This document shows, piece by piece, positions 15,112 through 43,669 of a DNA stretch of 64,000 nucleotides. The DNA is from Turneriella sp. GTDB lineage: Bacteria > Spirochaetota > Leptospiria > Turneriellales > Turneriellaceae. The translations under genes and the position numbers were made by a program. The stretch spans positions 2,976,001-3,040,000 of the forward strand of contig CBDIID010000003.1 in the NCBI GenBank assembly GCA_965279515.1, read 5' to 3'. The notes under the pieces were generated by a model, which worked only from the letters and a program-made list of their open reading frames with translations, was not told where the DNA came from and did no database searches. Position 1 is the stretch's first letter; every line of letters starts with the position of its first letter.

Positions 15112-15180
15112 AATATTCATAAGTTATAACTTCGTAAGCATTGTTTGAGCCGCTTTTTGCCGTGCTGCGTATAATAGCTG

Positions 15181-16140
15181 GTGGAAAAGGCACGCGCAAT
15201 GTACCGGGCACGTTTACAGTATTATGTCGCTTTCTGTTTGCTGGCCTTGCCGTCGGTTTTTGCGGCTCCCGTCGAAACGACGCAGCAGCGCAAAAAGCTG
15301 ATTTTCGTGAATTTTTATAATGCCACGGGCAACAAGAACATCGCCTACCTCGAAAGTTCGATCGTCGATTCGATCCATGAACTCATTAAGAACAAGTATG
15401 CCTATGACCGGGTAACCGCCGAAGAGTGGAAAAAATTCATTACCTACAGCGACTTCTCTGAGGCAGATTATTACGATCCCGAAAAGCTACAAAAGATCGG
15501 CATGCATTTTCATGCCGATGGTATTATCTTTGGCAAGCTCTCCAACCACCCGAACGGGATTCTCATCACCGGCAAGATTCTTTCCGTGATCGAAAAAGAA
15601 GTCATCGCCGAAAAGGAACTCGTCGCGCCGCTCACCGCCGAGATGTTCGAGAGTGTCAATAGCATCTCTGAAGCTCTGGCAGTCAAAATCAAAGACCTGT
15701 TCATTCCCTCGGACTTAGGTGCGCTGCGGCGCTCGGCAATGCTACCGGGCTGGGGCCAGTTTTACAAGCAGCGCAAGAAGTGGGGCTATATCTGGGGGAT
15801 TTCTGTTGGGGTCGCATTTCTCACATCTTCGTATTTCACCTACGCTTACATAAAGAATAACAACGCTTACAGAAACGCTGAGCCTCAGGATGATCCGGCG
15901 AGCCTGTACAGTAAGGCAGATTCAAGCTACACTGCGATGCAGATCGGCTGGTATGTGACGCTTGGTCTCTATGTTCTCAATCTTGCAGACGCGTATTTTT
16001 TCCATGGCGACTACAATCTCGCGGCACCTGGCAAGACTGCCATGTTGCCCGAGAATATATCGATAGCCGTGAACCGGATACTGTCGCCATTCGGGCAGGC
16101 GGAGACGGCGGTGAATATTCTATGGAGGCAGCCTTTATGA
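15181..16140 (+). CDS. Secreted TolB_N/FlgO/CsgG-like protein with a DUF5683-like C-terminal region
   Basis: Signal peptide, LIFVNFYNATGNKNIAYL...ADGIIFGK, and SAMLPGWGQFY. Confidence 0.7.
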   Translation: MEKARAMYRARLQYYVAFCLLALPSVFAAPVETTQQRKKLIFVNFYNATGNKNIAYLESSIVDSIHELIKNKYAYDRVTAEEWKKFITYSDFSEADYYDPEKLQKIGMHFHADGIIFGKLSNHPNGILITGKILSVIEKEVIAEKELVAPLTAEMFESVNSISEALAVKIKDLFIPSDLGALRRSAMLPGWGQFYKQRKKWGYIWGISVGVAFLTSSYFTYAYIKNNNAYRNAEPQDDPASLYSKADSSYTAMQIGWYVTLGLYVLNLADAYFFHGDYNLAAPGKTAMLPENISIAVNRILSPFGQAETAVNILWRQPL

Positions 16141-28512: not shown

Positions 28513-29068
28513 TATGTGGAGCCGCATCACTCTCGCCGTAGTTCCCTGGCTGATTCTCGCGGGCATGGTGATCGGCGCCTACCTGCCGGTTTTCCGCGGG
28601 CAGAAATACCTGCTGCCGGTCATTCCGCGCGATCCGCGGGATTTCTTTCGTGGCAACTATGTTGACCTGCAATACGAGTTTTCGAATCTCAGCCGCGAGA
28701 ACATCCACATGGGTGTTGATCCTGAAAAAATCTACCGCTTTGGTGACCAGCTGTTCCTCGATCTGAAAAAAGAAAATGATTCCCTGAAGGCGGTGGGCCT
28801 TTACGACAGCGCGGAAAAGGCGAAGAACATCAGGCTCAAGGTGCAGCCGCGCTGGAACCTGGAAAAAGGCAACATTGTTTTCGATCTGGTGACGGGTCTC
28901 GAATCGTATTTTGCCCCTAAAGAGGCGGCCGAAGAGTGGGAAAAAGCTTTGCGCGAGCGCCTGGTTTTTGCCGAAGTCGCCATCGATGCTGGCGGTAATG
29001 CCCGGCTGACACGGCTGGTCAAAAAAGAGAAACCGGTACCAGCAAAAAAAACTGAGGATGAACAATAA
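28502..29068 (+). CDS. GDYXXLXY-domain protein
   Basis: PRDPRDFFRGNYVDLQY and GLESYF. This family usually partners DUF2157. Confidence 0.88.
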   Translation: MKNNMWSRITLAVVPWLILAGMVIGAYLPVFRGQKYLLPVIPRDPRDFFRGNYVDLQYEFSNLSRENIHMGVDPEKIYRFGDQLFLDLKKENDSLKAVGLYDSAEKAKNIRLKVQPRWNLEKGNIVFDLVTGLESYFAPKEAAEEWEKALRERLVFAEVAIDAGGNARLTRLVKKEKPVPAKKTEDEQ

Positions 29069-29765
29069 TATGCGAAAAATAATTCTTCCAGGTGTCTGTG
29101 TCGCCGTCTTTTTAGCGGCCTGCTCCACTTCAAAAATATCCATCCGCAAAGACGCGATAAAACAGATGAAGACCATCGCGGTGATGCCGTTTACTTCCGC
29201 CGTCGCCGATGCGAAGGTAACGCGCGAATGTACCGAGCTCTTCCGCGGCAGTATGCTGACGGGCGGTTTTCAGGTGGTCGAGCGCGAGAAAATCGATAAG
29301 ATTCTGAAAGAGAAAGAACTCGCGCAGTCAGGCCTCGTCGATAACAAGGCGCTCGAAGCCGGTCAGTTCCTCGGTGCCCAGGGGACCATGCTGGGTGAAA
29401 TTACCGCGCATGAAGTGAAATCCGACACGATGGAATCAGAACTACCCGTCGACGGCCCCGGTAAATACGACCCCCGCCTCGACAAGGGCGATGGTGTTTT
29501 TTTCCAGCGCGAAATTAAACCGGGTGAAAAGCGCTGGTACAAGAGAGACAAGCGCGATACCTTCCAGTTCCAGCTTGTCGTGCGCCTGATCTCGAATGTC
29601 GACGGGCAGACGGTACTCACGCTGCAAAATGAGTACCCGGTCCGCACCTATACAGCCGATAGCGGTTCGCTGCGCCCTGCCAATCTCGACCAGTTTCGCG
29701 CGCAGGTGCTCGCACAGATGGGCAAAGACATAGAGAAAGCGCTTAAAGAAGCCCGCGAGCCATAA
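29058..29765 (+). CDS. CsgG/HfaB-like lipoprotein
   Basis: Lipobox FLAAC, IAVMPF, and FQVVEREKIDKILKE..LAQSGLVD...GQFLGA. Confidence 0.8.
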   Translation: MNNNMRKIILPGVCVAVFLAACSTSKISIRKDAIKQMKTIAVMPFTSAVADAKVTRECTELFRGSMLTGGFQVVEREKIDKILKEKELAQSGLVDNKALEAGQFLGAQGTMLGEITAHEVKSDTMESELPVDGPGKYDPRLDKGDGVFFQREIKPGEKRWYKRDKRDTFQFQLVVRLISNVDGQTVLTLQNEYPVRTYTADSGSLRPANLDQFRAQVLAQMGKDIEKALKEAREP

Positions 29766-30366: not shown

Positions 30367-30414
30367 ATCCATCCCCATTTCGCGCAGCGCGCACGCACCG
30401 CCAATCCCCGGCCA

Positions 30415-31872
30415 CTACCGGTACTGCACAATCAACGCATTGGAACCCGAATAAACGGCGGTGACCGTTTGCCCTTCATAGACATAGCTTCCCGCGGCAT
30501 TGGGATTACCCACTGCAAACAGGCGGGCGTCTTTGCTGAGCGCAAGGCCATTGAGAACCTGGGTTGAACCTGCGGGGCTCGAGGTGGGCAGCCTTGCCCA
30601 CTCGCCGGGCCCCGAGGGATCATACTTCAATACAATGGCCTGCTGCTCGGTCGTGCTCTTGGGCACTAATAGACCGCCGTAGTTCGCGGTAAGATTTCCC
30701 GATTGGATACCTGAAACATAAATCTTACCGCGCCCGTCCGTGGCGACTCCCGTAAAACTAGTCAACGCTACGTCACCCAGCTGCGCCGCTAACACCGTAC
30801 CAGTCGTACTGAACTTGAGCAAGACGCCTTTGGTGGTGCCGTTGGCAGGGGTTAATGTAAAACCGCCATAGCTCGCCGGTCCTATCTGAGGACCCACGAC
30901 ATAGATGTTATTATTCTTATCAATAGCGACATCGCTGAATTGGCATGAAGTACCTCCACCGGGATTTACTGCCGAAAATACCCATTGCACTATGCCAGAA
31001 CTCGAGTACTTAATAACAATGGATCGCACGGTCGTGCTGGCTGGAATTATCGCCCCCCCGGGATAAGTCACAGCACAAGTACCCTGAAGGCCGACCGCGT
31101 AAACATCGCCGAAACTATCTGCCGCGACTGCCCTAAAGGCACTAATGCAAGTGCTTGTAGTGGTGGAGGTTCCCCACTGCGCTACACCTGCGGAATCATA
31201 TTTCACCAAAAGTACGTTATTACCAGAAGCATAACCCGAGTTCACCGTCTGTGAGCCATAGGTGCATGAGGCGACGTCTTGATTACCAACAGCGTAGACG
31301 AAATTGCCTGCGCTCGCTGCCACGCGGTAGAATATGCTGGTACAAGCCGCAGCCGAGGTTGCAGCCCACTCCGCGACGCCAGCGGGATTATATTTAACGA
31401 GTAAAGGACCATTACCCGTAAAGTTTACGGTCGAAAATGTAAATGTGCCAGTACCGCTAATATCTCCGGAGGCGTAGATACTATCGCTACTGTCGACGGC
31501 AACGCCGCGGAAAGCTACATTAATATTGGTGCCAGTAGCCGACTGCGCCCAGACCGCATTACCGTTCGTGTCGTACTTCACGATCAGCGGGTAGCTGCCG
31601 CTACCGCCGCCCGTTACCGACTGGCTACCAAAAACAAAAGGAAGGGTGCCGCTGATGGTTCCGACCGCATACGCATTACCAGCGCTATCCGGTGCTACAC
31701 TTAAAAACGCCGATGAGTTAGGTGCGGTAGTTGGGCTGCGCCCCCAGGCAAATATACCCTGGTTGGTGGGTATATCATCGATTTCCCAAAATTTGCCCCA
31801 GGATTGGCAGTGGAGAAAGAGCATAGCCGGTAAAAAAGCTATGCATAGGTTCTTTTTGGTAAGCGTTCTCAT
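30415..31872 (-). CDS. Beta-propeller (SBBP-type repeat) surface lipoprotein
   Basis: Signal ending LFLHC. Repeated F-x-x-VA-x-D-S-x-G-N-x-Y-A-V-G ... IVKY-D-x-x-G-x-x-x-W units. Confidence 0.85.
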   Translation of the reverse strand: MRTLTKKNLCIAFLPAMLFLHCQSWGKFWEIDDIPTNQGIFAWGRSPTTAPNSSAFLSVAPDSAGNAYAVGTISGTLPFVFGSQSVTGGGSGSYPLIVKYDTNGNAVWAQSATGTNINVAFRGVAVDSSDSIYASGDISGTGTFTFSTVNFTGNGPLLVKYNPAGVAEWAATSAAACTSIFYRVAASAGNFVYAVGNQDVASCTYGSQTVNSGYASGNNVLLVKYDSAGVAQWGTSTTTSTCISAFRAVAADSFGDVYAVGLQGTCAVTYPGGAIIPASTTVRSIVIKYSSSGIVQWVFSAVNPGGGTSCQFSDVAIDKNNNIYVVGPQIGPASYGGFTLTPANGTTKGVLLKFSTTGTVLAAQLGDVALTSFTGVATDGRGKIYVSGIQSGNLTANYGGLLVPKSTTEQQAIVLKYDPSGPGEWARLPTSSPAGSTQVLNGLALSKDARLFAVGNPNAAGSYVYEGQTVTAVYSGSNALIVQYR

Positions 31873-31935
31873 TTTGGTTCCATGCCGGGTTTTTTACCTC
31901 TGCCGTTCCCCGGATTATAACGAGAAAAACTGGTG

Positions 31936-31963
31936 TTGTCGCCCCAGATTATATTCTGGGGCG
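31936..31963. promoter_or_regulatory. Divergent copy of the conserved upstream motif / 9-bp inverted repeat
   Basis: TTGTCGCCCCAGATTATATTCTGGGGCG. CGCCCCAGA/TCTGGGGCG is a perfect inverted repeat, and it shares TTGTCGCC.CA.AT.AT with the 42041 copy. Confidence 0.5.
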
Positions 31964-31966
31964 CCT

Positions 31967-33607
31967 TTAGGCTTTGGGCGGTACTTGGAAAGCGCGCATA
32001 CGAAACTCCTGAGGCGTCTCACCGGCAATGCGCTTAAACTCACGGTTGAAGGCGTTCTTAGACCCGAAACCCGTTTCAAACGCGATATCCAGCACAGTTC
32101 TGTTGGGATCTTTAATGAGCAGTGATTTTGCCTCTTCCACGCGATATGCATTCGTATAGTATGTAAAACTTTGCTTTCGATGCGCGTTCACAAGTTCTGA
32201 CAGTTGGTGCCGTGAGAGACCGAGTTGTTCTGCCGCTTTCTCGAGATTAAACGCGTCGTCATGGTAGGGTTTCTCGTTTGCCATGAACGCCTCGAGCTCT
32301 GTGAGTTTCTCTGTAATGTTTACAGCCTCGAGCTTCGATCTGTAATATTGCGCTCCTTCCTTAGAAGAGCGAAACGCACTGCCGCGCAGGTTTTCTGCTC
32401 TTTCTTCGATAAGATCCCGATACTTCTGAAAAAGATTGAAGAGCAAAAAAAACAAATCCACAGGTAATGCGAAAACCAGGCCGTACTTGATGATTGGCGA
32501 ATAGGAAAGGATACCTGCCAGGTAGGCTGCGAAAGGATAACCGACAATGAAAAAGATACTCCAGCTCAGGACAAAGAACAATACTTGCCTGCCGACCTTG
32601 AAATAGATGCGGATTCCCGCGATCAGGAACAAGGGAACCGCAATCAGGTAGATCACCGAACTCACACCTGCAAAAAAGCGGTTCGTTGTAGTCACAAGTA
32701 CGCCGATCGCGCACATGGCCGAAACCAGGGAAAAAAACAGGAAAATCTTATCGATAACTGGGGTATGTTTGCGTGTGCCCAGAAAAACGCGCGCAAACTG
32801 AAACGAGAGAGGAATGGCGAGTGCGACAAAGAACAGGTTGGCGCGACTTTGCCACCAAATTGCTTCTGGCCAGAAATAATGAAAGGCATTGCCATGGTTG
32901 GCGTTAATCCACATGGTTTGGCTCAAGACATACCCCGCGTAGAGAATAAACTCGGGCAGGCGAAAAACCCAGAATTGAAACAGTGCAATGAGAAACATCA
33001 CTAAGCAGAGCCCGAGAATTAACCAATTGATGGCCGCCTCTAATAGAATTTCGCGCAAGAATTCCGATTCTGAAAGCGAATAGATGGGAAAAGAAATCAG
33101 CGAAGCGGATTGAATACGAATATAGAAGTAAGTATCCTGTGTCGGCTTGTGTCCCGGAATGCGGAAAGCCGGATCTAAGGATTCTGGTACAGCCCAGAAT
33201 CGTTTAGGTACGGTATCACCGGTTTTATGTTCTTCGTAGCCACCTTTGTCATCGGGATAAAACAAAATTGCCGAATCGAGCACCTTCGAAGGCAGCGTCA
33301 GAATGCGCCCTGGGGCAAATGCCGGATCACCCGTTTTTCCCCTGAGCCAGATAATATCCTTCGTGAACTGAAAATTCATGCTCGGTTTCTCAAACCGCTG
33401 CCATGCCGGTGCCGAACGTACGTCTTCAATGCCGAGATTTTGCGTAGCATCCCTCAAAAATTCGAAGCGTGTCGTAGAAGTCAGCTTCGCAGGTTCAGTT
33501 TCGGGCAGGGCATTGAGGGGTAGGCCTGTTAAGCCCAGACAGAAGATCAGGATCAGCGGCTTCGCGGTTAGGTAGTCGGGCACGGCTGCGCCGAGTGCGC
33601 AGTCCAA
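31967..33607 (-). CDS. 7TM-DISM sensor fused to an AraC HTH regulator
   Basis: Periplasmic 7TMR-DISMED2-like part (FLRDAT...F..DIIWLR), 7 TM helices (FHYFWP), and a C-terminal AraC domain (HQLSELVN, YRVEEAK, DIAFETGFGSK..FNREFK). Start uncertain. Confidence 0.9.
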   Translation of the reverse strand: MDCALGAAVPDYLTAKPLILIFCLGLTGLPLNALPETEPAKLTSTTRFEFLRDATQNLGIEDVRSAPAWQRFEKPSMNFQFTKDIIWLRGKTGDPAFAPGRILTLPSKVLDSAILFYPDDKGGYEEHKTGDTVPKRFWAVPESLDPAFRIPGHKPTQDTYFYIRIQSASLISFPIYSLSESEFLREILLEAAINWLILGLCLVMFLIALFQFWVFRLPEFILYAGYVLSQTMWINANHGNAFHYFWPEAIWWQSRANLFFVALAIPLSFQFARVFLGTRKHTPVIDKIFLFFSLVSAMCAIGVLVTTTNRFFAGVSSVIYLIAVPLFLIAGIRIYFKVGRQVLFFVLSWSIFFIVGYPFAAYLAGILSYSPIIKYGLVFALPVDLFFLLFNLFQKYRDLIEERAENLRGSAFRSSKEGAQYYRSKLEAVNITEKLTELEAFMANEKPYHDDAFNLEKAAEQLGLSRHQLSELVNAHRKQSFTYYTNAYRVEEAKSLLIKDPNRTVLDIAFETGFGSKNAFNREFKRIAGETPQEFRMRAFQVPPKA

Positions 33608-33726
33608 ATTACTGTGTCACGCAGAAACGGGTTACCTGAGCAAACCGCCATGTTTATTGAACCTTTAAGTAAGCCAATAGGCAGGCAAAAATTGGAGAAG
33701 CCTGTGCTGCAATAAAAAAAATATTC

Positions 33727-34950
33727 TCATTTTGCGCAGCGCGCACGCATCGCCGTGCCCGTTGAAGATGACCAGGTAATCTGGCTGTTCGAATAATCCA
33801 TGATAAAATTGCCGACATTGTTCCAGCCATAAAAACAACAATTGACCAAGCCCCATGACTGGGCAGCTTCGCGCGTCCAGTATTGCCCGCTGAAGTTTGC
33901 GGGGAAAAGCGCATTCACCGACGGTGCTGCGTAGTTGCCGGCACCGCAGTTTCCAATCTCCGTTAGACCACTGTTTTGGGATGTTGGATATGTCTTGTCG
34001 CTGCAGTGTAGGGTCAAGTGCGCCTGGTAGATCTGCGACTGCAGATTCCAGCCCGACCCGATTGCATTGCAGGCCGTGTTCGCAGCGGCAACGGAATAGG
34101 TACCGGGGCTGCCCGAGCAGGTGTTCGTCGCCGCTTGCCAGGTTTGCCCTAAACTGCATTTCTGGAAGATCACGGTCATTCCCGGAGTATAACCCGGTGG
34201 CGGTGTCGATGAAGAAAGCAAATAAGAAACAGTTCCGTCGCCGTTATCGGTCGCCGTCGCCCACGAATAGACTACCTTGCCGAAAGCCAGTGTGACAGAG
34301 GTTGAAGCTGTCTGTACACCGTCTGAGGCCGTCATGGTATATGTCGTGGGGCCCGTCACCGCGGGGGTGGCTCCGGAAATCGCGCACGTCGCATTGTTCA
34401 ATGAAATGCCTGCGGGCAATGAGGGGCTTATCGAACACGAAACGATTGGGGTAAGGGATGTTGGTGTGATCGGAGTGATGGCTGCTATGATGGCGCTGTC
34501 GTAGCTTGCCTGGGCAAACGCTAACGTTGAATTTACAATCAAGTTGATACTCGCCTGCGCCGATCCATATTCATTTTTTGCTGAAATTGTGTGCAGCGTC
34601 GCCAGCTGGGAAACTGTTGGTGTTCCCGACAAGGCACAGGTTTTTGGATTTAAGGATAACCCGCCCGGCAGCGCGGGGCTCGCCGAGCAGCTTTCGACTG
34701 TGCCTGAAAACGATGCCGTGACTGGCGGCAGCGCTGAATTCACGGTGAGCACGAGATCGTTTGCCGAAAGCACCAGGTTTTTGGGTTTGAGCTTGTCGGC
34801 GATATAATCCTGGGTATTTTCCCGGCCCGTGGTGGCGCTGGTGCAGGCGAAGAGCGACGCAGCTAATAGCCCGGCAGCCGCAGGGAATATGACGTGGCAG
34901 TTTTTCCTTAGCAACTGAGCCCCCTTTCGATTCGTGAATTCACTAGTCAT
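33727..34950 (-). CDS. Lipoprotein with two putative Ig (He_PIG-like) repeats and a C-terminal DUF1566/Lcl (C-type-lectin-like fold) domain
   Basis: Lipobox SLFAC, PALPGGLSLN..TCALSGTP repeats, and DNGDGTV...KCSLGQTW...C.G...FP...YW...RC. ATG at 34950 preferred over 35022. Confidence 0.82.
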   Translation of the reverse strand: MTSEFTNRKGAQLLRKNCHVIFPAAAGLLAASLFACTSATTGRENTQDYIADKLKPKNLVLSANDLVLTVNSALPPVTASFSGTVESCSASPALPGGLSLNPKTCALSGTPTVSQLATLHTISAKNEYGSAQASINLIVNSTLAFAQASYDSAIIAAITPITPTSLTPIVSCSISPSLPAGISLNNATCAISGATPAVTGPTTYTMTASDGVQTASTSVTLAFGKVVYSWATATDNGDGTVSYLLSSSTPPPGYTPGMTVIFQKCSLGQTWQAATNTCSGSPGTYSVAAANTACNAIGSGWNLQSQIYQAHLTLHCSDKTYPTSQNSGLTEIGNCGAGNYAAPSVNALFPANFSGQYWTREAAQSWGLVNCCFYGWNNVGNFIMDYSNSQITWSSSTGTAMRARCAK

Positions 34951-34955
34951 TTGTA

Positions 34956-36170
34956 TTACGGCCCTGTGGCAATGCAGCGCACATGGTAGACCCAGCCGCC
35001 GCCTGTCGTGGCAGCAGACCATATGCCTGCCTGCGCGCTGGCGTTTAGGGCAAAGCTAATCCAGTAGGTAAATGAAGTCAACGGTGGCACGTTGATGTTG
35101 ATGCTATCGCTGGCCCAATAGCGCCCACAGTGCCCGCTGCTACAGGCGGCGGTAATCTCCGTATTGGGAAAAAGGGAATTGACTGACGGAGCGCTGCCGT
35201 TACCAGCACCACAGCCACTTGCACCATAGCTGACTTTGGATTTGTTAGTGCAATGAACCATGGCCGACAGTTCTAATCCCGTAGGCATGCGCCAGCTTCC
35301 GCTGCCTCTGCCCGCAAAACTCAGCGTGCCACAGTTTCCACCAAAGACGCCATAGACACCGGCGCCATATGTCGGGGCTGTGCCGGTGCCCGTACAGTCA
35401 TTGGTTGCTGAGTTCCATGCCTGACCCTGGCTGCATTTCATGAAAACCAGATTCATACCGGCATACCCATCCGCTGTTCCCGTGAATGAAACTGTTCCAT
35501 TCATGTTGTCGCGAAAGCAACCGCGCAAATAACATTCATCGACGCGTATGTTAATGGTTGCGGATGCACTGCCTAAGGCATTGCTTGCAGTGATTGTATA
35601 ATCGACCGGATTCTGGTAATTCGTTGCCGTGCCCGTGATTGCGCAGGTCGTATTATTCAAAGACAGGCCCGCGGGTAGTGCCGGGGTGGATGAACACGAG
35701 GTGACGGTTCCGTTTACGGTTGGCGTAATGGTCCCGACGGATGAGTAATTGGAAAAGGTGAAGGGATTTCCGGCATAGGCGAGATTTGAAGGCGGCGGAA
35801 TATAGATGCGGATGCCGATTTCGGTCGAGGAGAAACCAAAGTCGTTACTGCCTGTAATCGTATATTTGACTTCAGCCTGCGCTGTCAGTGGTGTACCCGA
35901 AATGGCGCAGGTCTCGGCGTTCAATGTCAAACCTGCGGGTAGTGCCGGAGAACTCACGCAACGAGTCAGGCCCTTGCGAACAGAAACGGAAGGAACCTGA
36001 GCCGTGACAGCGATACCCTCGTAAAACGTGACGGTACTTTGATCGTACTGAAGATTTGCGGGTGCAAATCCATCGACGTAATTTTGCATATTTTCACGCC
36101 CTGTGTTTGCGTTCACGCAGGCACCCAGCAGCGCGATGGTGGCGCAAATGATAGATCTGTAAGCTACCAT
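34956..36170 (-). CDS. Paralogous Ig-repeat plus DUF1566/Lcl lipoprotein
   Basis: Lipobox LLGAC, PALPAGL(T/S)LN..TCAI(S/T)GT twice, and DNMNGTV...KCSQGQAW...WRMPT..EL...YW...VRC. Confidence 0.85.
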   Translation of the reverse strand: MVAYRSIICATIALLGACVNANTGRENMQNYVDGFAPANLQYDQSTVTFYEGIAVTAQVPSVSVRKGLTRCVSSPALPAGLTLNAETCAISGTPLTAQAEVKYTITGSNDFGFSSTEIGIRIYIPPPSNLAYAGNPFTFSNYSSVGTITPTVNGTVTSCSSTPALPAGLSLNNTTCAITGTATNYQNPVDYTITASNALGSASATINIRVDECYLRGCFRDNMNGTVSFTGTADGYAGMNLVFMKCSQGQAWNSATNDCTGTGTAPTYGAGVYGVFGGNCGTLSFAGRGSGSWRMPTGLELSAMVHCTNKSKVSYGASGCGAGNGSAPSVNSLFPNTEITAACSSGHCGRYWASDSININVPPLTSFTYWISFALNASAQAGIWSAATTGGGWVYHVRCIATGP

Positions 36171-38131
36171 ACCCTTACTCCTAACTGCAAGCCTACGGAA
36201 TGCTGTAAAATATACGGTTCGCTCGGAATGTAAACAAAATCCGCATGGTAGCGGATGCCCGCCTGCAAGCGTTCGCCCAATTCATAGTAGCAGTTGATAC
36301 CCGCAATCGCCCCGGGGCCGATCGTGCTCAATAGGTTGATCGGTGCCGAAGAGCGCAGCGACACGTAGCGCGCACCCACACCACCAAAGGCAACGAGACG
36401 GGTCTTTTCCAGGAAACTTCCCGGTAACCGAAAGGGATATCCCGCAAGCGCGTTGAGGCCAATGCCGTGGTAAGAGAGCGTATGTCCCGATTCGACAAAG
36501 ATACCCCTGCTCGTGTATAAATCCGCCGTGCCCTGAAAGTATGTATACGTGGCCTCGCCGCCGACGAGAATATTGTAGCGCAGATAATATTTTGCCCAGT
36601 AACCGGCCGTGACCGAGAAGCGGCCCGAAAGTGCGTTGAGCGGAAAACTCGCATCGGGCCGCAGGTTTTCGGCGCGGGCGTTGTTCCCCTGCATGATCGG
36701 GTAACTTCCCGAAACGGTCAGCCAATGCTGCAGCTTCGGCATGCAGTAGAGGCGCAGTGACACGGCTTTCCCCGAGACGCGCGCCGGGGGGCTTACAAAA
36801 TCACATTGCTGCGGCGGTTGCGCGGGCAGCTTCGTGATCTGCAGGCGCAAGGGTTCGAAATCTTCGAGCGTGTCGGGAAAACGAAACGCCGCATTTTCGC
36901 TGAGAGTGACAGCTTCTGCGTCGCCGAGTTTCACGGCAACCTCACCGCCCTTGAGGCCCTCGACTGTGCCCGCGACGGCATAACGCTTCGTGATGCAGAC
37001 GGCAGTCGCATGGTTGATGCCGGTAATCGTCGTCTTACCCGAGCCGTTGACCACAAAGCAGCGCTGCGAAGGTTTTACCGGTTCTTCGGCGAGTGTAAAA
37101 TCATAGGCCGCACCGAGTGCGACCTCGCTGCCGAAGGCGAGCTCGCCATTGGCGGATGTTTCGCGTTTCTTGAGGCCGGCGTATTCGATGTTGAGATCTT
37201 TTCCCTTGAGGCCTTCAACCTGAATCTTCGCGTCGAATTTCCAGGTGCGGATAAACCCCGCGACGAGCTGCGCGGCAGCGGCAAGCGCGGCGTCTTCTGT
37301 TTCGCCTTCGCCGGTGAATGACACGAGCGCCGCCGGCTTCAGCGGCGAATAGAGTTGTACTTCGGTTGAGAATTTTTCCCCGGCTTTGGAGGTACGGGCG
37401 ATGATTGCGTAGGCCGCATGGTCGGCGCGCATGAGTTCGGCGGCGAGGCGCGCCTGCTCCTCTTTCGTGCCCGGCAGCGGTGCTGTAAGCGGCTGATAAT
37501 TAAAATCTCGCGTATCGGGGTCGGCAAGAATCGATGTAATTTTTGCGCCGATGCCTTTTACCTGCGTTTCGGCATAAAAGAGCAGGCGCGGCGCAAAGGG
37601 AATGAAGAGCGCGGGCTTGTGTGCTCCCGCAGGTTTACCCTTTCCCATGCGCGCGACCGATGCGGCAGCCGATTTATCGACGGCGGGAAAAAGCTGGCTG
37701 CTGTCGATCGAGGCCGGTTGCCGCGCGAGCACCTCGAGGCTGTTGTTCTTTGCGTAGTAGAGCTGTGACTCGATCACGAGCGCCTCGCCGCCAGAAGGAG
37801 AAAAACTGCCGCCAAGTACAATATCCGCTCCCGTGAGTGCCGAGAACACCTGGTAGCGCATCTTGCCGGCAACCTTGTACTCCGCAATCAGCTCGAGTGC
37901 CTTTGTGGTCTTCTCTTCGGCAACATCGGTGTACTGGTAGTGGCGGCGCAGTTCGTTCTTGTAGCTGTCGACGAACAGGTTCGATATCCAGTCGACATTG
38001 GGGTTGGGGGTGCGGTTTTCGAACGGGAGAATGGCCACTTTGAGTAGGCTGTCAAAATTCTGGGCGCTGAGAGGATAAAAAAGCCCGCAAATAGCTAATA
38101 AGATCAGAAAAACCTTACGCGGAGGGCGCAT
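36164..38131 (-). CDS. Secreted TolB_N/FlgO-like protein with beta-sandwich repeats and a putative C-terminal beta-barrel
   Basis: Signal peptide, VAILPFENRT.N.N.DWIS, two (V)EGLKG...P..P.Q.C....G......C repeats, and amphipathic strands ending GLQLGVRVW. Confidence 0.72.
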   Translation of the reverse strand: MRPPRKVFLILLAICGLFYPLSAQNFDSLLKVAILPFENRTPNPNVDWISNLFVDSYKNELRRHYQYTDVAEEKTTKALELIAEYKVAGKMRYQVFSALTGADIVLGGSFSPSGGEALVIESQLYYAKNNSLEVLARQPASIDSSQLFPAVDKSAAASVARMGKGKPAGAHKPALFIPFAPRLLFYAETQVKGIGAKITSILADPDTRDFNYQPLTAPLPGTKEEQARLAAELMRADHAAYAIIARTSKAGEKFSTEVQLYSPLKPAALVSFTGEGETEDAALAAAAQLVAGFIRTWKFDAKIQVEGLKGKDLNIEYAGLKKRETSANGELAFGSEVALGAAYDFTLAEEPVKPSQRCFVVNGSGKTTITGINHATAVCITKRYAVAGTVEGLKGGEVAVKLGDAEAVTLSENAAFRFPDTLEDFEPLRLQITKLPAQPPQQCDFVSPPARVSGKAVSLRLYCMPKLQHWLTVSGSYPIMQGNNARAENLRPDASFPLNALSGRFSVTAGYWAKYYLRYNILVGGEATYTYFQGTADLYTSRGIFVESGHTLSYHGIGLNALAGYPFRLPGSFLEKTRLVAFGGVGARYVSLRSSAPINLLSTIGPGAIAGINCYYELGERLQAGIRYHADFVYIPSEPYILQHSVGLQLGVRVW

Positions 38132-38164
38132 TTTGCATCCTCCTCATAACCGAAATCCGTGCTT

Positions 38165-38192
38165 TTGTCGACTCAAATGATCATTTAAGACC
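38165..38192. promoter_or_regulatory. Conserved palindromic upstream motif (putative operator)
   Basis: TTGTCGACTCAAATGATCATTTAAGACC, 25/28 identical to 42041-42068, with the perfect palindrome AAATGATCATTT. Confidence 0.7.
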
Positions 38193-40572
38193 CTTTTTCC
38201 GCAAATATCGGCCGCTGGGCAAGCCACTGCGGTACCTTCGATCTCTCCAAATAAGCCTCAGCGATACTCTGGCGTCCGAAGACATAAGGACGGCCTTGGA
38301 TGTGCATGTTTCTCACCCACTGCTCCCTGCCTGCCCCGCCGACCTCAAAAGCCACCGAATTTCCGAAAAGGCCGCTCGCTACGTTATCAGGGTTTTGTAT
38401 GACCGTGCAGTCGGGTGGCCCGCTGCAAAAATACGGCGTGGCATTCTCATCATGCCTGGTGATACCCGTAGCAGAACCATAGAAAACATAGGCAGCACCT
38501 TTCGTTGCTGCACCGGCAGTTTGGCCGCCTGCGGCGGAGGTACCGTTGTTCTGCTTGGCCCCGACGAACACATCGGGATAACCATCGCCATTCACATCAC
38601 CCGCAAACGCGACCGCGAAGCCGAAATTGCCGGTCGAGTTATCGGGGTTCTGTATGACCGTGCAATCGGGCGGGCCGCTGCAATAGTAGGGAGTCGCATT
38701 CTCGTCATGCTTTGTGATGCCTGAAGCAGAACCGTAGAAGATATAGGCTGCACCCTTGTTGGGATTTCCCGGAGTCTGCCCGCCAGCGGAATTCGCACCA
38801 TTGTTACCGAATGCCCCAACGATGACGTCGCTATAGCCGTCGCCGTTGACGTCACCGGCAAAGGCAACGGAGTTTCCGTAAAATGCCGAGATTCGGTCGT
38901 CTGGGTTTTGTATGACAGTACAATCGGGGGGGCCGCTGCAGTAGTAGGCTGTCATATTCTCGTGATGCTTTGTGATGCCCGAAGCGGAGCCATAGAATAG
39001 ATAAGCCGCACCCTTGTTTGTCTGACCTATGCCCTGCCCGCCAGTAGCACCTGCGCCGTTATTAAACGATGCCCCTACGATAACATCTGCATACCCATCA
39101 CCGTTCACGTCACCCGCATAAGCAACGGAAAAACCGAAGAAGCCGCCCGTTGCGTTATCGGGGTTTTGCACCACGGTGCAATCGGGTGGCCCGCTGCAGT
39201 AATACGCCGTCGCATTCTCGTCATGCTTTGTAATGCCTGAAGCAGAACCGTAGAAGATGTAGGCTGCCCCTTTGTTTGGAACACCGGCAGTTTGCCCACC
39301 AGCGGCATTCATACCGTAGTTTTGCTTGGCGCCAATGATAACATCTGCAAAGCCATCGCCATTCACATCACTGGCAAAGGCGACTGAATTTCCGAAAAAG
39401 CCGCTGGCCGCCGGGTTATCAGGATTTTGTATCACGGTGCAGTCCGGTGGCCCACTGCAGTAATACGCCGTCGCATTCTCGTCATGGTTAGTGATGCCTG
39501 CAGCAGAACCATAGAATATGTAGGATGCACCCTTGCCGGTCGCACCCGCGGTTTGTCCGCCAGCGGCATTGGAACCATTGTTTTGGTATGCGCCGATGAC
39601 GATATCGGCATAGCCGTCGCCATTCACATCGCCCGCAGAGGCTACGGAGTAACCGAAGAAACCCGCCGCGTTATCGGGATTTTGTACGACCGTGCAATCG
39701 GGCAGCCCGCTGCAATAATAGGGCGTGGCATTTTCGTCGTGCCGTGTGATGCCCGCCGCAGAACCATAAAACACATAGGCAGCCCCTTTATTCGTCGCAC
39801 CCACAATTTGACCACCTGCCGCACTCGAACCATTGTTCTGGTATGCTCCCACAACGATGTCGGCATAGCCATCGCCGTTGACATCGCCTGCAAAGCTTGC
39901 CGAGAATCCAAAAAGCCCGGCCGAATTATCGGGGTTTTGTATGACGGTGCAATCGGGTGGCCCGCTGCAATAATAGGGCGTCGCATTCTCTGCATGTCTT
40001 GTGACGCCCGCTGCCGACCCGTAAAATACATAGGCGGCGCCTTTGTTTCCTGCGCCGCTTGCGCTTTGCCCGCCCGCCGCAGAGGCTCCATTGTTTTGGG
40101 GTGCTCCGACGATGACATCGGCATAGCCATCGGCATTGACATCTTTGTTCGTTTGCCGGGTAAAAGTGACATTGACTGTATCGCTCTGCGTATTGCCATT
40201 CGCATCGAACGGGCGCAGTTTCAGCGTATGCTTCGACCCCACCTGCCAGCGGTCTTTCCCGGCCGCTGCCTCGGCGCCTGCGGGAATAAATAACCTCCAA
40301 GTTTGCCCGCTGACTATGGCCGACTTATAGGCGCCATCGTCGAACGAGCCCTTCACCTCGCTCGCACCGGCGGTCAAGGTTCCAGTGACAACTCCACTGT
40401 AGAGTTCCCCGGCATGGCCCGAAGTCACGTTCTTGAGATTCGTCAGCGTGAGACCGCTGCCAAATTTGTCGAGAAACGAAGCCGGGGTCGAGAATTTGCA
40501 GGTGGCGCATATTAACATAGTTGCGATCGATAATGCGACGCCGAAGACTCTACGGATCTTATGGGATGACAT
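38185..40572 (-). CDS. FG-GAP (integrin-alpha-like) seven-repeat beta-propeller surface lipoprotein
   Basis: Seven repeats of about 86 aa, DVNGDGYAD(I/V)(I/V)VGA...KGAAY(V/I)FYGS...FG.SVA. N-terminal signal ICATC. Confidence 0.92.
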   Translation of the reverse strand: MSSHKIRRVFGVALSIATMLICATCKFSTPASFLDKFGSGLTLTNLKNVTSGHAGELYSGVVTGTLTAGASEVKGSFDDGAYKSAIVSGQTWRLFIPAGAEAAAGKDRWQVGSKHTLKLRPFDANGNTQSDTVNVTFTRQTNKDVNADGYADVIVGAPQNNGASAAGGQSASGAGNKGAAYVFYGSAAGVTRHAENATPYYCSGPPDCTVIQNPDNSAGLFGFSASFAGDVNGDGYADIVVGAYQNNGSSAAGGQIVGATNKGAAYVFYGSAAGITRHDENATPYYCSGLPDCTVVQNPDNAAGFFGYSVASAGDVNGDGYADIVIGAYQNNGSNAAGGQTAGATGKGASYIFYGSAAGITNHDENATAYYCSGPPDCTVIQNPDNPAASGFFGNSVAFASDVNGDGFADVIIGAKQNYGMNAAGGQTAGVPNKGAAYIFYGSASGITKHDENATAYYCSGPPDCTVVQNPDNATGGFFGFSVAYAGDVNGDGYADVIVGASFNNGAGATGGQGIGQTNKGAAYLFYGSASGITKHHENMTAYYCSGPPDCTVIQNPDDRISAFYGNSVAFAGDVNGDGYSDVIVGAFGNNGANSAGGQTPGNPNKGAAYIFYGSASGITKHDENATPYYCSGPPDCTVIQNPDNSTGNFGFAVAFAGDVNGDGYPDVFVGAKQNNGTSAAGGQTAGAATKGAAYVFYGSATGITRHDENATPYFCSGPPDCTVIQNPDNVASGLFGNSVAFEVGGAGREQWVRNMHIQGRPYVFGRQSIAEAYLERSKVPQWLAQRPIFAEKGS
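38345..40145 (-). repeat. Intragenic tandem repeat, 7 units of about 255-261 bp
   Basis: The DVNGDG-coding unit recurs at roughly 258-bp spacing. Units differ mainly at third codon positions. Confidence 0.9.
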
Positions 40573-42013
40573 ATTCGACTCCTAGACTCGCTCTGAAATA
40601 CGTGAGGTTCTGCCCCTGGTAAAGATAACTGCCGGCCATGAGGGATAACATGAGATGCCACGGAGATTTCTGCCCCAAACGATAAAATTGGTTGAGACCT
40701 ATCTCGGGGTTGATTGCCATGATGCTGTAGGCGCCAGAGCTCAGGTCGCGAAAAAAATTCTGGTATTGCACATAGACGCCGATCACCGGCGAAAGCGAAT
40801 AGCGCTTCCCGAAATCAAAGGGCCGGTCAAAACGCAATCCGCCACCGGCAGAGAAGAGATGGATTCTGCTCTTGGTCGGGTTATCTGCCAGGTATTGCGC
40901 GGCATCTCCGCTGCCATAAGTGAATTGTGTCGCCAAAGCCCAGCGCATCTTCGCCGGCAAGAATTGCCAGCGTCCCGGCAAAATTCCCGCTTCGAGGGTT
41001 GCATAGCCGCGCATCGCATCGAAGGTAAAGCCGCTGCCGGCAGTGAGCGCCGCGGGGTTTGACATACCCGCTACCGAAAGACTTGTCATGTACGGATACC
41101 CGGCTGTCACCCACCAGCGCGCCAAGACTGGCCCGCGCGGGTCGGGGTAATGCATACGCACCGTATACTTTATCGCATCGGGTTTTTCTGTGTATGCGAG
41201 GTTCAAAACCGGTTCCGTCGATTCGGCAACGCACTCTTCGCCGTTACATTTGAATCCGGTCGTCGTGATATGCGGATTAAGACGTTTACGCAGGTATTCA
41301 TAAGTAAAGCGGATGGTTTTATTTTCAGCCGCTTCTTCGTAATTCAGATATACATCATATTCGTAACGATCGATGTCAAATGCCGGTCGCAGTACGAGGT
41401 TCTTTATGCTCAACGAATCGAGAAAACCTTTAGGCGGATGTTCCAGGCGGTAAATGAGCAACTCGAGTTTGTTATCTCGCTTGAATTCGCTTGCATCGAG
41501 TGGTCGTAATTTCTGGTTCAGCTCATCGGAGATATTGAGCGCGAGTTTGCCCAGCGTGTCGAAAATTTCCCCACCGGTCGCGGTTTCCTCATTTTTCGTG
41601 ACCACGGAAATATCTTCGAGCGCGTCGACAGCTTCGGCCTCTATTCTGACCATTTGTTGCTGGTCTTTTTTCGACACAGAAAACCGGCCAATAACGGCAA
41701 CTTCGCAATTCAGGCGTTTGGCAAATGCCGCCGCATTCTGCGGCGTGAGGTTCGCAAACTGCATGCCGGCATCGATTTTGCGTAGCAGCGTGACATCCAA
41801 AACTTCATAGCGCTCCGTTTTCAAAAGTTCGGCCTTGAGATTGTCTGCCATCGAATCAGACATCCAGTTGAAGTTCTTGTTATTCTGCAGGTTATCGAAG
41901 GGGAGAACAAGGACGCGGCGCTTCAGGATTTCCGCTTCTGCCGCGGATATGCAAAATAAATAGAAAATCGCCAGAAAGCCGAATCGTGAAACCCGGATGC
42001 AATCCTTAGACAC
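40559..42013 (-). CDS. Secreted TolB_N/FlgO-like protein with a cadherin-like segment and a putative C-terminal beta-barrel
   Basis: Signal ..SAAEA, VLVLPFDNLQNNKNFNWMS, LDSLSIKN.VL.PAF....YEY.V, and terminal FRASLGVEY. Confidence 0.72.
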   Translation of the reverse strand: MSKDCIRVSRFGFLAIFYLFCISAAEAEILKRRVLVLPFDNLQNNKNFNWMSDSMADNLKAELLKTERYEVLDVTLLRKIDAGMQFANLTPQNAAAFAKRLNCEVAVIGRFSVSKKDQQQMVRIEAEAVDALEDISVVTKNEETATGGEIFDTLGKLALNISDELNQKLRPLDASEFKRDNKLELLIYRLEHPPKGFLDSLSIKNLVLRPAFDIDRYEYDVYLNYEEAAENKTIRFTYEYLRKRLNPHITTTGFKCNGEECVAESTEPVLNLAYTEKPDAIKYTVRMHYPDPRGPVLARWWVTAGYPYMTSLSVAGMSNPAALTAGSGFTFDAMRGYATLEAGILPGRWQFLPAKMRWALATQFTYGSGDAAQYLADNPTKSRIHLFSAGGGLRFDRPFDFGKRYSLSPVIGVYVQYQNFFRDLSSGAYSIMAINPEIGLNQFYRLGQKSPWHLMLSLMAGSYLYQGQNLTYFRASLGVEYVIP

Positions 42014-42040
42014 CGGTTTTTATAACTGTTTTTGGGCATC

Positions 42041-42068
42041 TTGTCGCCTCAAATGATCATTCGAGACC
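42041..42068. promoter_or_regulatory. Conserved palindromic upstream motif (putative operator)
   Basis: TTGTCGCCTCAAATGATCATTCGAGACC, lying between the AraC gene stop and the start at 42013. Confidence 0.7.
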
Positions 42069-42073
42069 ATTTT

Positions 42074-43669
42074 TTACGATTTTTCGAGGTTTTTATCCCG
42101 GAACTCCATAGCTGTCATGCCTGTATAGCGCTTGAATTCATTTGAAAATACCGCCTTGGAGCCGAAACCCGTGGCAAAGGCGATTTCCAGGACATTCTGT
42201 TCAGGCGATTGCACCAACAAACTTTGGGCCTCCTGCACCCTGTATTCATTAATAAAATTGGCAAAATTCTTTCCAAAGTGGGAATTCAAGAGTTCCGAAA
42301 GCTGGGTGCGATTGAGTCCAAGCGCTTTGGCGAGGTCTGGCAGGCGCAAATCTTCAATCAGGTAGATTTTTTCCTCTTTCATGAGGATGTCTAACCGCGA
42401 GAGAATTTCTTTCAGATCGATCTCGGCGAGCGAAGATTTCTGGTATTTGGATTTCGCAGAGAGGGCAGCCATTTTTTCTTCGAGCAGACGTAACCGTTCC
42501 CGATCGGCGCCGCGTTGTTTTTCCCATACTGCCATAAAGAAAAACAGGATATCCACAGGCAGCGCGAACATAACACCATAGACATAAAAATTACTGAATG
42601 GCAAGAGATTCAAAATATAGAGAACGTGAAACATCGCGAAGAAAAACAGGATTCCCCAGCCGATGATAAAAAGCCGGATATGCGGCCGTGAATTCTTAAG
42701 GAGTATCACGCCGATTGCAAAGAACGCAGGGATAGAGATCAGGTAAACCAGCGAGATCAGGCGCGAAAAAATAACGACAGGTATGGTAGTGAGCGTTAGC
42801 GGAATGCTCAACAGGCAGATGATGGCGACGACTTTGCAAACCAGATCGACTCTGGGCATCAGCCGGGGAAAGTCGAGCAGGCGCCGCAGAAACAACATGG
42901 TGAACAGCACCTGCGCGCCCATAAAAGTGAAACCTGCACGGTTTTGCCACCATGTCGCCTCGGGCCAAAAGATATCGAACCCGTTACCGAATATCGTTGT
43001 AAACGCCAGGCTCACCGTCACGATATAGGCGATGTATAGCGGATAATTCATATCGCGGGAAACGATGTAGAGAAAAAGCGCGAATGCAACGAGAATCAGT
43101 ATCACGGTAGAATAGGCGAAGATCAACGTGACCTCGCGCTTCAGGTCGCGCAGGTAGGCGACCTCTGACTTTATGAAGATGGGAAAATTCATCAATGAAG
43201 TCGAAGTCAGACGGATGAAGAAAATCCCCCCCGAAACCCGCTCGGGCACAATCTCTACCGCGGGAAAGTGAGCCTCAGGCAGCGACCACTGCGACTTCGG
43301 ATACGCGTCACCGGCAATCTGTTTTTGTGTATCGCCTGAAGTATCGCGGTAGAACAGCTCTAAGGAATCAAGGGGTTTCCATTCGAAGACAGTATAGATC
43401 TTCTTTAGCGCGGCGAAATCGGGCAGCTCGCGCAGATCGAAACGGAACCAGAAGGCCGATTTGGAGAAGGCAAAGCGTGTCGCATCGAGACCGATCTTGC
43501 GCCATTTTTCCTGTGGCACGGCTGCGACATCGCCAAAACCCAGTTTGCCCGATGCGTCCTCAAGATAGTTCACGCCGGCAGTAAAATTCTGCTTTCGTGT
43601 TTCTGCGGTCAGGGGAGAAAGTGCCGCGGTGACTAAAAACAACCTAAGATAGACACGCACTACCGGCAT
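42074..43669 (-). CDS. 7TM-DISM sensor fused to an AraC HTH regulator
   Basis: YLEDASG...FAFSKSAFWFR, 7 TM helices (FDIFWP), then QLSELLN, YRVQEAQ and EIAFATGFGSK..F...FK. Confidence 0.92.
   Translation of the reverse strand: MPVVRVYLRLFLVTAALSPLTAETRKQNFTAGVNYLEDASGKLGFGDVAAVPQEKWRKIGLDATRFAFSKSAFWFRFDLRELPDFAALKKIYTVFEWKPLDSLELFYRDTSGDTQKQIAGDAYPKSQWSLPEAHFPAVEIVPERVSGGIFFIRLTSTSLMNFPIFIKSEVAYLRDLKREVTLIFAYSTVILILVAFALFLYIVSRDMNYPLYIAYIVTVSLAFTTIFGNGFDIFWPEATWWQNRAGFTFMGAQVLFTMLFLRRLLDFPRLMPRVDLVCKVVAIICLLSIPLTLTTIPVVIFSRLISLVYLISIPAFFAIGVILLKNSRPHIRLFIIGWGILFFFAMFHVLYILNLLPFSNFYVYGVMFALPVDILFFFMAVWEKQRGADRERLRLLEEKMAALSAKSKYQKSSLAEIDLKEILSRLDILMKEEKIYLIEDLRLPDLAKALGLNRTQLSELLNSHFGKNFANFINEYRVQEAQSLLVQSPEQNVLEIAFATGFGSKAVFSNEFKRYTGMTAMEFRDKNLEKS

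Follow-up and report, generated by a model that had tools for sequence, protein, structure and literature searches.

A Single-Strand Block of Sensor, Partner, and Lipoprotein Genes

The 64,000-nt stretch of the Turneriella sp. assembly GCA_965279515.1 analyzed here (contig CBDIID010000003.1, positions 2,976,001 to 3,040,000 of the forward strand; hereafter the window) harbors, between its positions 30,415 and 43,669, a 13-kb block whose eight ORFs all lie on the minus strand, just where the initial annotation had placed them (table 1). The block holds two AraC-type membrane sensors, two partner proteins termed A and B, three lipoproteins encoded beside the partners (cargo A, B1, and B2), and a propeller lipoprotein. 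Each partner combines an N-terminal domain (N-domain) with a predicted membrane domain, and a short segment directly behind the lipid cysteine of the cargo, the tag, was found to match the subfamily of that membrane domain. These matched tags, which recur among free-living relatives of Leptospira, suggest that a barrel probably retains an exchangeable set of its own lipoproteins on the cell surface.

The partner genes overlap the starts of their cargo genes by 14 nt (40559-40572) and 7 nt (36164-36170). The N-terminal motif reported for both partners aligns between them (E 4e-6), and the W(W/L).T..(G/S)YP strand starts a homologous barrel in both (hhalign probability 96.5%, E 9e-10). The domain labels originally assigned were upheld by Pfam for the sensors (7TMR-DISMED2, 7TMR-DISM_7TM, and HTH_18), for FG-GAP (E 5e-50), and for He_PIG in both Ig genes, whereas the DUF1566/Lcl_C and SBBP labels fell below the cut-off or were absent. 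DUF1566/Lcl_C in 34956-36170 stays under the Pfam cut-off (E 1.6e-4) and has no Pfam match in 33727-35022, where the assignment derives from 33% identity to the neighboring gene; the true start of this latter gene, cargo B2, is probably near 34950. SBBP in the propeller gene is likewise below the cut-off (Pfam E 0.011; NCBIfam Lepto_SBBP_lipo E 1.3e-24, 86.7 of 400 bits).

Table 1. Genes and sequence elements of the block (window coordinates)
Feature	Coordinates	Strand	Basis or remark
Sensor 1, 7TMR-DISMED2 + 7TM + AraC HTH, 531 aa	42074..43669	-	Pfam; 84% identical syntenic gene in L376
Palindromic element 1, over -35-like hexamer GCGACA, 17 nt before TATAAA	42041..42074	.	Candidate operator for partner A and FG-GAP genes
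Partner A, 484 aa	40559..42013	-	AlphaFold2, structural matches including Foldseek
Cargo A, lipoprotein with 7 FG-GAP repeats, 795 aa	38185..40572	-	Pfam; lipobox by heuristic
Cargo A tag, Cys+1 to +11, family pattern C-x-x-x-x-P-x-x-[FL]-[LF]-[DEN]	40468..40500	-	Tag comparison
Palindromic element copy 2, 88% identical to copy 1, upstream of partner B	38165..38198	.	Repeat comparison
Partner B, 655 aa	36164..38131	-	AlphaFold2, Foldseek, hhalign
Cargo B1, lipoprotein, two He_PIG Ig domains + weak Lcl_C; GREN tag at 36066-36119	34956..36170	-	Pfam
Cargo B2, paralogue of B1; same GREN tag at 34792-34845	33727..35022	-	Sequence comparison
Sensor 2, 7TMR-DISMED2 + 7TM + AraC HTH, 546 aa	31967..33607	-	Pfam; 80% identical in L376
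Palindromic element copy 3, diverged, GCGACA 17 nt before TATAAT, upstream of propeller lipoprotein	31936..31969	.	Counterpart at L376:10009
Propeller lipoprotein, SBBP/LipL53-like below cut-off; C-x-SWGKFW tag at 31786-31809; no adjoining partner	30415..31872	-	Pfam, NCBIfam

Partners Are Encoded Next to Lipoproteins

An iterated profile of the N-domain detected 39 genes in the genome, 28 of which are membrane-anchored judging by their C-termini, most being barrel-like and the remainder bearing a DUF5683-like segment. The expected enrichment of partners next to lipoprotein genes was borne out: a lipoprotein gene comes next downstream in 20 of these 28 versus 300 of 3656 other genes (Fisher p 5.6e-16), the 28 having been selected by C-terminal domain after their neighbors were known and the lipoproteins having been called by a heuristic of our own, which probably over-calls since it marks 525 of 4322 genes. 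No lipoprotein follows any of the 11 N-domain genes without a membrane domain. Among 73 genes with an outer-membrane-like C-terminus and no N-domain, 15 precede a lipoprotein, so the pairing may not need the N-domain. One such barrel is followed by two giant lipoproteins (G000:C3:4450247-4458876).

The N-domain profile matched 118 of 201 Spirochaetota genomes at E 1e-8, with at least 21 to 33 matches per genome in the genus and one or two in most genomes of the large family f8; the paralogue g632 as query returned two proteins. Of 28 loci from other Spirochaetota families, 12 look membrane-anchored and 11 of these are followed by a lipoprotein, as judged by eye. The clustering of cassettes also recurs, because locus L387 (G007:C1:476500-496000) holds three partner-cargo cassettes in tandem, with cargoes of up to 1549 aa. 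A different arrangement was observed for the partner at G000:C3:810214-811803 and its orthologues, next to which the same 130-residue lipoprotein is always found genus-wide, forming a fixed rather than swappable pair.

The Tag Follows the Membrane Domain of the Partner

We collected 287 N-domain ORFs, of which 253 have a C-terminal part of at least 100 aa and were clustered on that part, and 132 of the ORFs have a downstream lipoprotein. Each partner cluster exhibits its own pattern in the roughly ten residues that follow the lipid cysteine of the cargo. The segment from +2 to +17 was then scored between cargo pairs without blastp similarity in the body. Under the same partner cluster, the mean tag score was 17.6, with 17.7% of pairs at 25 or above (n=316), versus 11.9 and 0.3% under different clusters (n=7940), and the control segment from +41 to +56 gave 13.2 within clusters versus 11.8 across them. 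None of 2000 label shuffles reached the observed same-cluster score, a test that overstates significance because the pairs share ancestry. Conversely, homologous bodies under different partners scored 12.4, with none of 105 pairs at 25 or above. When pairs were divided by the similarity of the two partner domains, the score was 21.0 where both were alike (n=154) and 19.3 where only the C-terminal part was alike (n=41), versus 11.8 where only the N-domain was alike (n=287) and 11.9 where neither was (n=7592). The tag thus follows the membrane domain of the partner and neither its N-domain nor the cargo body.

In a tree of 22 partner-A barrels, a subclade of four (100/100 support) has a different tag in all three loci with a visible cargo. 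For partner B, the GREN tag is common to the cargoes in four of five fetched loci, the fifth having no cargo; this family provides weaker evidence because the first Ig domain of its cargoes is homologous.

Selection on the Tag and Exchange of Cargo Bodies

Given that genes overlap or abut and that the tag lies physically near the coding end of the barrel in most loci, the cargo 5' end might simply hitchhike with the 3' end of the barrel gene while recombination shuffles the bodies, with no functional link between the two. This explanation predicts poorly what was found in the sequences, and we consider it very improbable. No conservation was found in the signal peptide, the part nearer to the barrel gene: the effect size there is 0.11 SD, compared with 1.77 SD in the tag and 0.58 SD in the segment from +18 to +33. 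In 16 partner-A cargoes, picked for carrying the tag and excluding the three of the changed-tag subclade and two chance neighbors, identity in the tag was 0.62 over codon positions 1+2 but fell to 0.30 at position 3, with 0.27-0.33 in both flanks; C+1 and P+6 do not vary. Silent sites in the tag are saturated, whereas its protein sequence is conserved. The tag is likewise retained by cargoes whose gene precedes the partner gene or comes second in line (L007, L009, L383, L385, L387, L375, L377, and cargo B2), which hitchhiking leaves equally unaccounted for.

The bodies behind the tag of partner A are diverse, comprising FG-GAP, Lcl_C, CHB_HEX_C + Big_5 + Lcl_C, He_PIG + FGE-like, and FGE-like alone. 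At L376, the gene order is the same as in the window, with sensors 80-84% and partners 53-60% identical, and its first cargo is an Lcl_C protein without blastp match to the FG-GAP lipoprotein that nevertheless carries the same tag as cargo A. This swap, together with the unrelated bodies found under one partner-A tag, corroborates the earlier suggestion that the cargo is interchangeable. As a separate observation, the cargo gene upstream of a partner-A homologue in G014 (L380:3600-3900) is apparently frameshifted near its start, reflecting either an assembly error or a pseudogene.

A Tag Without an Adjoining Partner

The propeller lipoprotein bears another tag, C-x-SWGKFW, which occurs on 20 scattered lipoproteins of nine body families in the genome, where shuffles expect none, and is confined to the genus (10 of 34 genomes of the order). 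The gene lies in the block, downstream of sensor 2, and carries this genome-wide tag without an adjoining partner. A subfamily of g570-type barrels is present in all genus genomes searched, mostly without adjoining cargo, and a neighbor with a related aromatic tag was found in three loci only; that these barrels serve the SWGKFW lipoproteins in trans may be taken as a lead from the sequence patterns.

Twenty SWGKFW lipoproteins without an adjoining partner also bear on the possibility that the tag serves as a sorting signal for a general machine such as a type II secretion system (T2SS)/GspN-like apparatus or the lipopolysaccharide (LPS) translocon, with the barrel being a co-regulated and independent surface protein. 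Sorting motifs behind the lipid cysteine are known, as described in the available text of PMC12802150, and the T2SS secretin GspD is encoded in the genome (above cut-off). However, this explanation does not account for dozens of tags that each track one barrel subfamily and change with it, and the T2SS motifs are rich in G/S or N/D, unlike the partner-cargo tags; we regard it as improbable.

Partner Structure and the Site of the Cargo

The initial annotation had proposed a TolB_N/FlgO/CsgG fold and a transmembrane barrel for the partners, and both were predicted in both proteins by AlphaFold2, Foldseek, and structural alignment. The model of partner A (pLDDT 86.6, 34 sequences) comprises a signal helix, a TolB-N/CsgG-fold domain (aa 30-170), a beta-sandwich (aa 200-288), and an 8-stranded barrel (aa 298-483), and that of partner B (pLDDT 79.5, 14 sequences) a signal helix, two alpha/beta domains of which the first is TolB-N-like, two Ig-like sandwiches, and an 8-stranded barrel (aa 468-654). 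The placement of the domains relative to each other is uncertain because the pTM is low (0.56 and 0.58). The barrel of partner A aligns with NspA (Z 17.0, rmsd 2.5, 152 aligned) and also matches OmpA, OprF, and OmpW, and its N-domain aligns with TolB (Z 13.3, rmsd 2.6, 123 aligned, TolB residues 35-160), which places it in the TolB-N/CsgG/FlgO/LpoB/PelC fold group, and with the ring-forming folds of CsgG (Z 11.4), PelC (Z 11.8), and the flagellar LPHT-ring chain 8z5n_5 (Z 13.2). For partner B, Foldseek retrieved OmpA (E 5.6e-7) and TolB (E 9.2e-6). Features of OmpA/NspA-type proteins, namely the signal peptide, eight antiparallel strands, and an aromatic residue near the C-terminus, are present in the predicted models. 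Neither partner is named by Pfam or NCBIfam; among their paralogues, PF13505 matches weakly in three and CsgG exceeds the Pfam cut-off in two. In the ESM Atlas, partner A leads to unnamed Spirochaetota clusters and the barrel of partner B to generic barrel clusters.

According to these models, the partners would reside in the outer membrane, and the TolB-N domain and spacer would be periplasmic, since the two termini of a barrel with an even number of strands lie on the periplasmic side. Charged residues are conserved within the barrel strands, which would fit a filled lumen. A folded or hairpinned chain of 400-2000 residues does not fit through an 8-stranded barrel of the OmpA/NspA type. Docking of a cargo that is exported otherwise is favored because the barrel is likely too narrow for a Slam-like channel, and we judge the chances that the barrel holds cargo exported by another route to be evenly balanced. 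The partner would be a small outer-membrane barrel that binds the short tag right behind the lipid anchor of its own lipoproteins, holding them at the cell surface after they have crossed by a general route. The docking site would be the barrel rim or the outer loops rather than the lumen, and the common N-domain would tie many barrels to one periplasmic function (for example, chaperoning, the formation of oligomers, or an interaction with an assembly machine). For a short segment that is under selection, adjoins the lipid anchor, and varies with the membrane domain of the partner, direct contact of tag and barrel at the membrane edge is the simplest arrangement; both this physical binding and the surface exposure of the cargo are presumed. 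General export routes for lipoproteins have been reported, through LptD (10.64898/2026.10.03.756453) and the T2SS (PMC12802150), as far as the available text of these sources goes, and the former describes the LptD claim for Borrelia as challenged. The T2SS secretin encoded in the genome would be in keeping with export by such a general route.

Alternatively, the partner itself could move the tagged lipoprotein across the outer membrane, performing the job of Slam with another fold, either by co-assembly at BAM, as proposed for RcsF-OmpA, or through a multi-barrel pore held by CsgG/PelC-like rings of N-domains. The one-to-one gene coupling, the overlaps, and the specificity tag recall the specificity of Slam1 and Slam2 (PMC7857515), the matches of the N-domain to CsgG, PelC, and 8z5n_5 suit a ring, and the available part of the same review treats the spirochaete flippase as still undiscovered. 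Set against this are the narrowness of an 8-stranded barrel, the charged strand residues that would fill its lumen, and the LptD and T2SS routes already reported, so that dedicated export appears unlikely.

A slightly less probable arrangement, also unlikely, is a periplasmic complex in which the cargo stays on the inner leaflet and its tag docks on the periplasmic rim of the barrel, as a solute receptor, a signal relay, or an envelope brace. No membrane crossing would be required, the tag would sit at the membrane edge on either side, and the conserved stretches of partner A, after strand 2 (0.60) and in the linker (0.80), lie on the predicted periplasmic side. However, the cargo modules are typically extracellular (FG-GAP, Ig, Lcl_C, DUF1554, FGE-like, and Kelch), some cargoes exceed 1500 aa, cargo B1 weakly matches the model of the surface adhesin Lsa25 (E 0.003), and unrelated bodies under one barrel are a poor fit to a fixed transport partnership.

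Several observations weigh against surface docking by matched tags, in addition to the shared ancestry of the compared pairs and the selection of the 16 cargoes given above. A downstream lipoprotein was not called for 8 of the 28 partners, and partner B at locus L378 has none. The tag signal is near-absent in cluster 0 (111 pairs, mean 12.9, 3% at 25 or above) and cluster 5 (11 pairs, mean 10.2), and since bodies were clipped at locus ends, some of the pairs counted as non-homologous may be distant relatives. No barrel partner was found within 1.5 kb in any of the 30 loci around SWGKFW lipoproteins. The predicted outer loops of partner A show a conservation of 0.41-0.70, not above that of strands or periplasmic turns, and the location of the cargo was judged from domain types alone. 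Finally, neither PF19838 nor PF04453 matched an LptD in the genome, although a divergent LptD could escape both profiles.

AraC Sensors and a Palindromic Element

Copies of a 34-nt palindromic element lie ahead of three genes of the block, those for partner A, partner B, and the propeller lipoprotein; each copy ends with GCGACA or TCGACA, 17 nt before a -10-like hexamer. The element was also found directly 3' of the AraC gene in L001, L376 (twice), L382, and L380, in the last of which the upstream AraC gene was found after the element had already been observed at the locus edge, and within the AraC-bearing locus L128; L384 has a weaker copy, below threshold. Local sensor control is plausible because the palindrome overlaps a -35-like hexamer and follows 7TM-AraC genes in five relatives. 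With a matrix trained on the three window sites, the 120 nt downstream of each of 4291 other genes yielded no 16-bit site, and among 31 AraC genes only the two window sensors have the element downstream. In this cassette and some of its relatives, the 7TM-AraC sensor likely controls the pair through the palindrome, to which its AraC domain would bind.

One-component sensor control, as previously envisaged, therefore holds locally, via the candidate operator, and not as a general feature. An AraC gene lies directly upstream of 2 of the 28 partners in the genome, both in the window, and AraC genes occur in 8 of 215 loci (about 3.4 kb each) from other genomes and metagenomes; with such counts, AraC sensors do not define the partner family. 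A genome-wide AraC regulon was considered and rejected: 14 matrix matches of at least 16 bits were obtained, including four training matches, versus 3-8 in shuffles.

DUF5683-Type Partners and Other Observations

A third cassette lies in the window on the plus strand (13993-18545), comprising an AraC regulator (13993-15111), after which no palindrome was found, a partner with N-domain and DUF5683-like segment (15181-16140), and a beta-helix lipoprotein of 807 aa (16122-18545) whose gene overlaps the partner gene by 19 nt. Elsewhere in the genome, DUF5683-type partners at G000:C3 645897, 2108419, 2114570, 2120792, 4602032, 795673, and 1269879 accompany lipoproteins with N-C-[LI]-N-x(4)-C after the lipid cysteine; some lipoproteins of this type reach about 2000 aa, two are orphans, and the tag type recurs in another family of the phylum (L347). 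In a further family, the G042 loci L077, L148, L150, L151, L168, and L170-L173 exhibit DUF5683-type partners followed by lipoproteins with an R-x-N-x-x-D-P tag and nine body families.

In Leptospira-type genomes (loci L327, L331, L336, L337, L338, L341, and L344), the N-terminal part of DUF5683-like genes is of a different kind (LIC11435 family, caspase-like). Judged by eye, these genes precede lipoproteins in about 7 of the 20 regions fetched, and four of the lipoproteins have an N-x(1,3)-[LFM]-D-P or similar D-P tag. From its numbering, the neighbor in L327 would be the orthologue of LIC11436, which is listed as a fibronectin-binding protein in the available part of PMC11350617.

A broader and rather doubtful proposal is that these branches together form an addressable display system, in which a shared periplasmic adaptor would be joined to exchangeable modules, either an 8-stranded barrel or DUF5683, each reading its own tag and both translocating and holding its lipoprotein. 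Orphans would be served in trans, and the DUF5683 branch would do likewise for the Leptospira N-x-x-D-P lipoproteins. If true, this would supply a missing route for spirochaete surface lipoproteins.

Two further features were observed at the edge of the block. A 32-nt direct repeat (88%) at 30371-30402 and 33723-33754, at the ends of the propeller gene and of cargo B2, is possibly a terminator or a small repeat element. A CsgG-family lipoprotein with the same fold and no barrel is encoded just past the block on the opposite strand (29058-29765, plus strand; E 1.1e-10).

Comparison with Known Systems

The known routes listed in the available text of two reviews (PMC7857515 and PMC13721041) are Slam, the T2SS, BAM, and autotransporters, and both call the spirochaete route open. 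Within the main text of open-licence PubMed Central and bioRxiv papers, supplements being outside the scope, no description of the barrel-lipoprotein pairing or of the tag code was found; the partner-cargo system is real and apparently undescribed in print. A 10-residue tag and paired genes make the question of how spirochaete lipoproteins reach and stay on the surface directly testable, and the tag gives a rule that predicts which lipoproteins are surface-displayed, and with which partner. A fixed tag with swapped bodies also suggests how cells renew their adhesin set, and the tags, if orthogonal, could offer a surface-display toolkit.

Slam cargo proteins share a C-terminal barrel domain, whereas the cargo bodies described here are unrelated and have only the N-terminal tag in common. 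The analogy to Slam or two-partner translocation drawn initially turned out to be weak, as the barrel has 8 strands and not 14 or 16. The Slam profile PF04575 matched neither the partners nor the genome, in a search whose control likewise matched nowhere, and both models lack the POTRA domain of two-partner secretion (TpsB/Omp85), with 8 strands rather than 16. The likeness to Slam and type XI secretion resides in the barrel gene that adjoins its own lipoprotein gene, the paralogue-specific cargo, and the N-terminal periplasmic domain (PMC7857515, PMC13721041, available text); in these accounts Slam has tetratricopeptide repeats (TPRs) and a 14-stranded barrel. The partners have a predicted TolB-N fold and 8 strands.

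Closer in operation, and precedents for the proposed docking, are small barrels that hold surface lipoproteins exported by other means. In the LPS translocon of Bacteroidota, the 8-stranded barrel LptQ anchors the surface lipoprotein LptR through its outer loops (10.64898/2026.10.03.756453). It resembles the partners in its strand number and in the anchoring of a surface lipoprotein by outer loops that is proposed for them, but it is a subunit of a fixed machine with one partner, and the available part of that report describes no TolB-N domain, paralogue array, or tag code. The Myxococcus barrels GltA/B/H/K similarly recruit and retain the adhesin lipoprotein CglB, which, in the available text, reaches the surface without them (PMC9946355), and in a predicted model, a strand from CglB intercalates between those of the barrel (PMC11761067). 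Glt is nonetheless a multi-subunit motility machine with one adhesin, whereas single fused partners with many exchangeable cargoes are found here.

Information in the first residues after the lipid cysteine is likewise known from the T2SS/GspN motif (PMC12802150) and from the Bacteroidota lipoprotein export signal (LES). Those signals, as far as the available descriptions go, are compositional and genome-wide (G/S- or N/D-rich, or net negative), in contrast to the many sequence-specific and partner-matched tags of this system, which do not carry the T2SS/GspN motif GGG or ND(N/D) at +2 to +4. RcsF-OmpA at BAM also provides an 8-stranded barrel in complex with a lipoprotein (PMC7857515), but involves one stress sensor and general porins, with no dedicated adjoining gene or tag family in the available account. 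Taken together, and without the fold features of Slam or two-partner secretion, the system resembles a barrel anchor in its working and the Slam operons in its organization.

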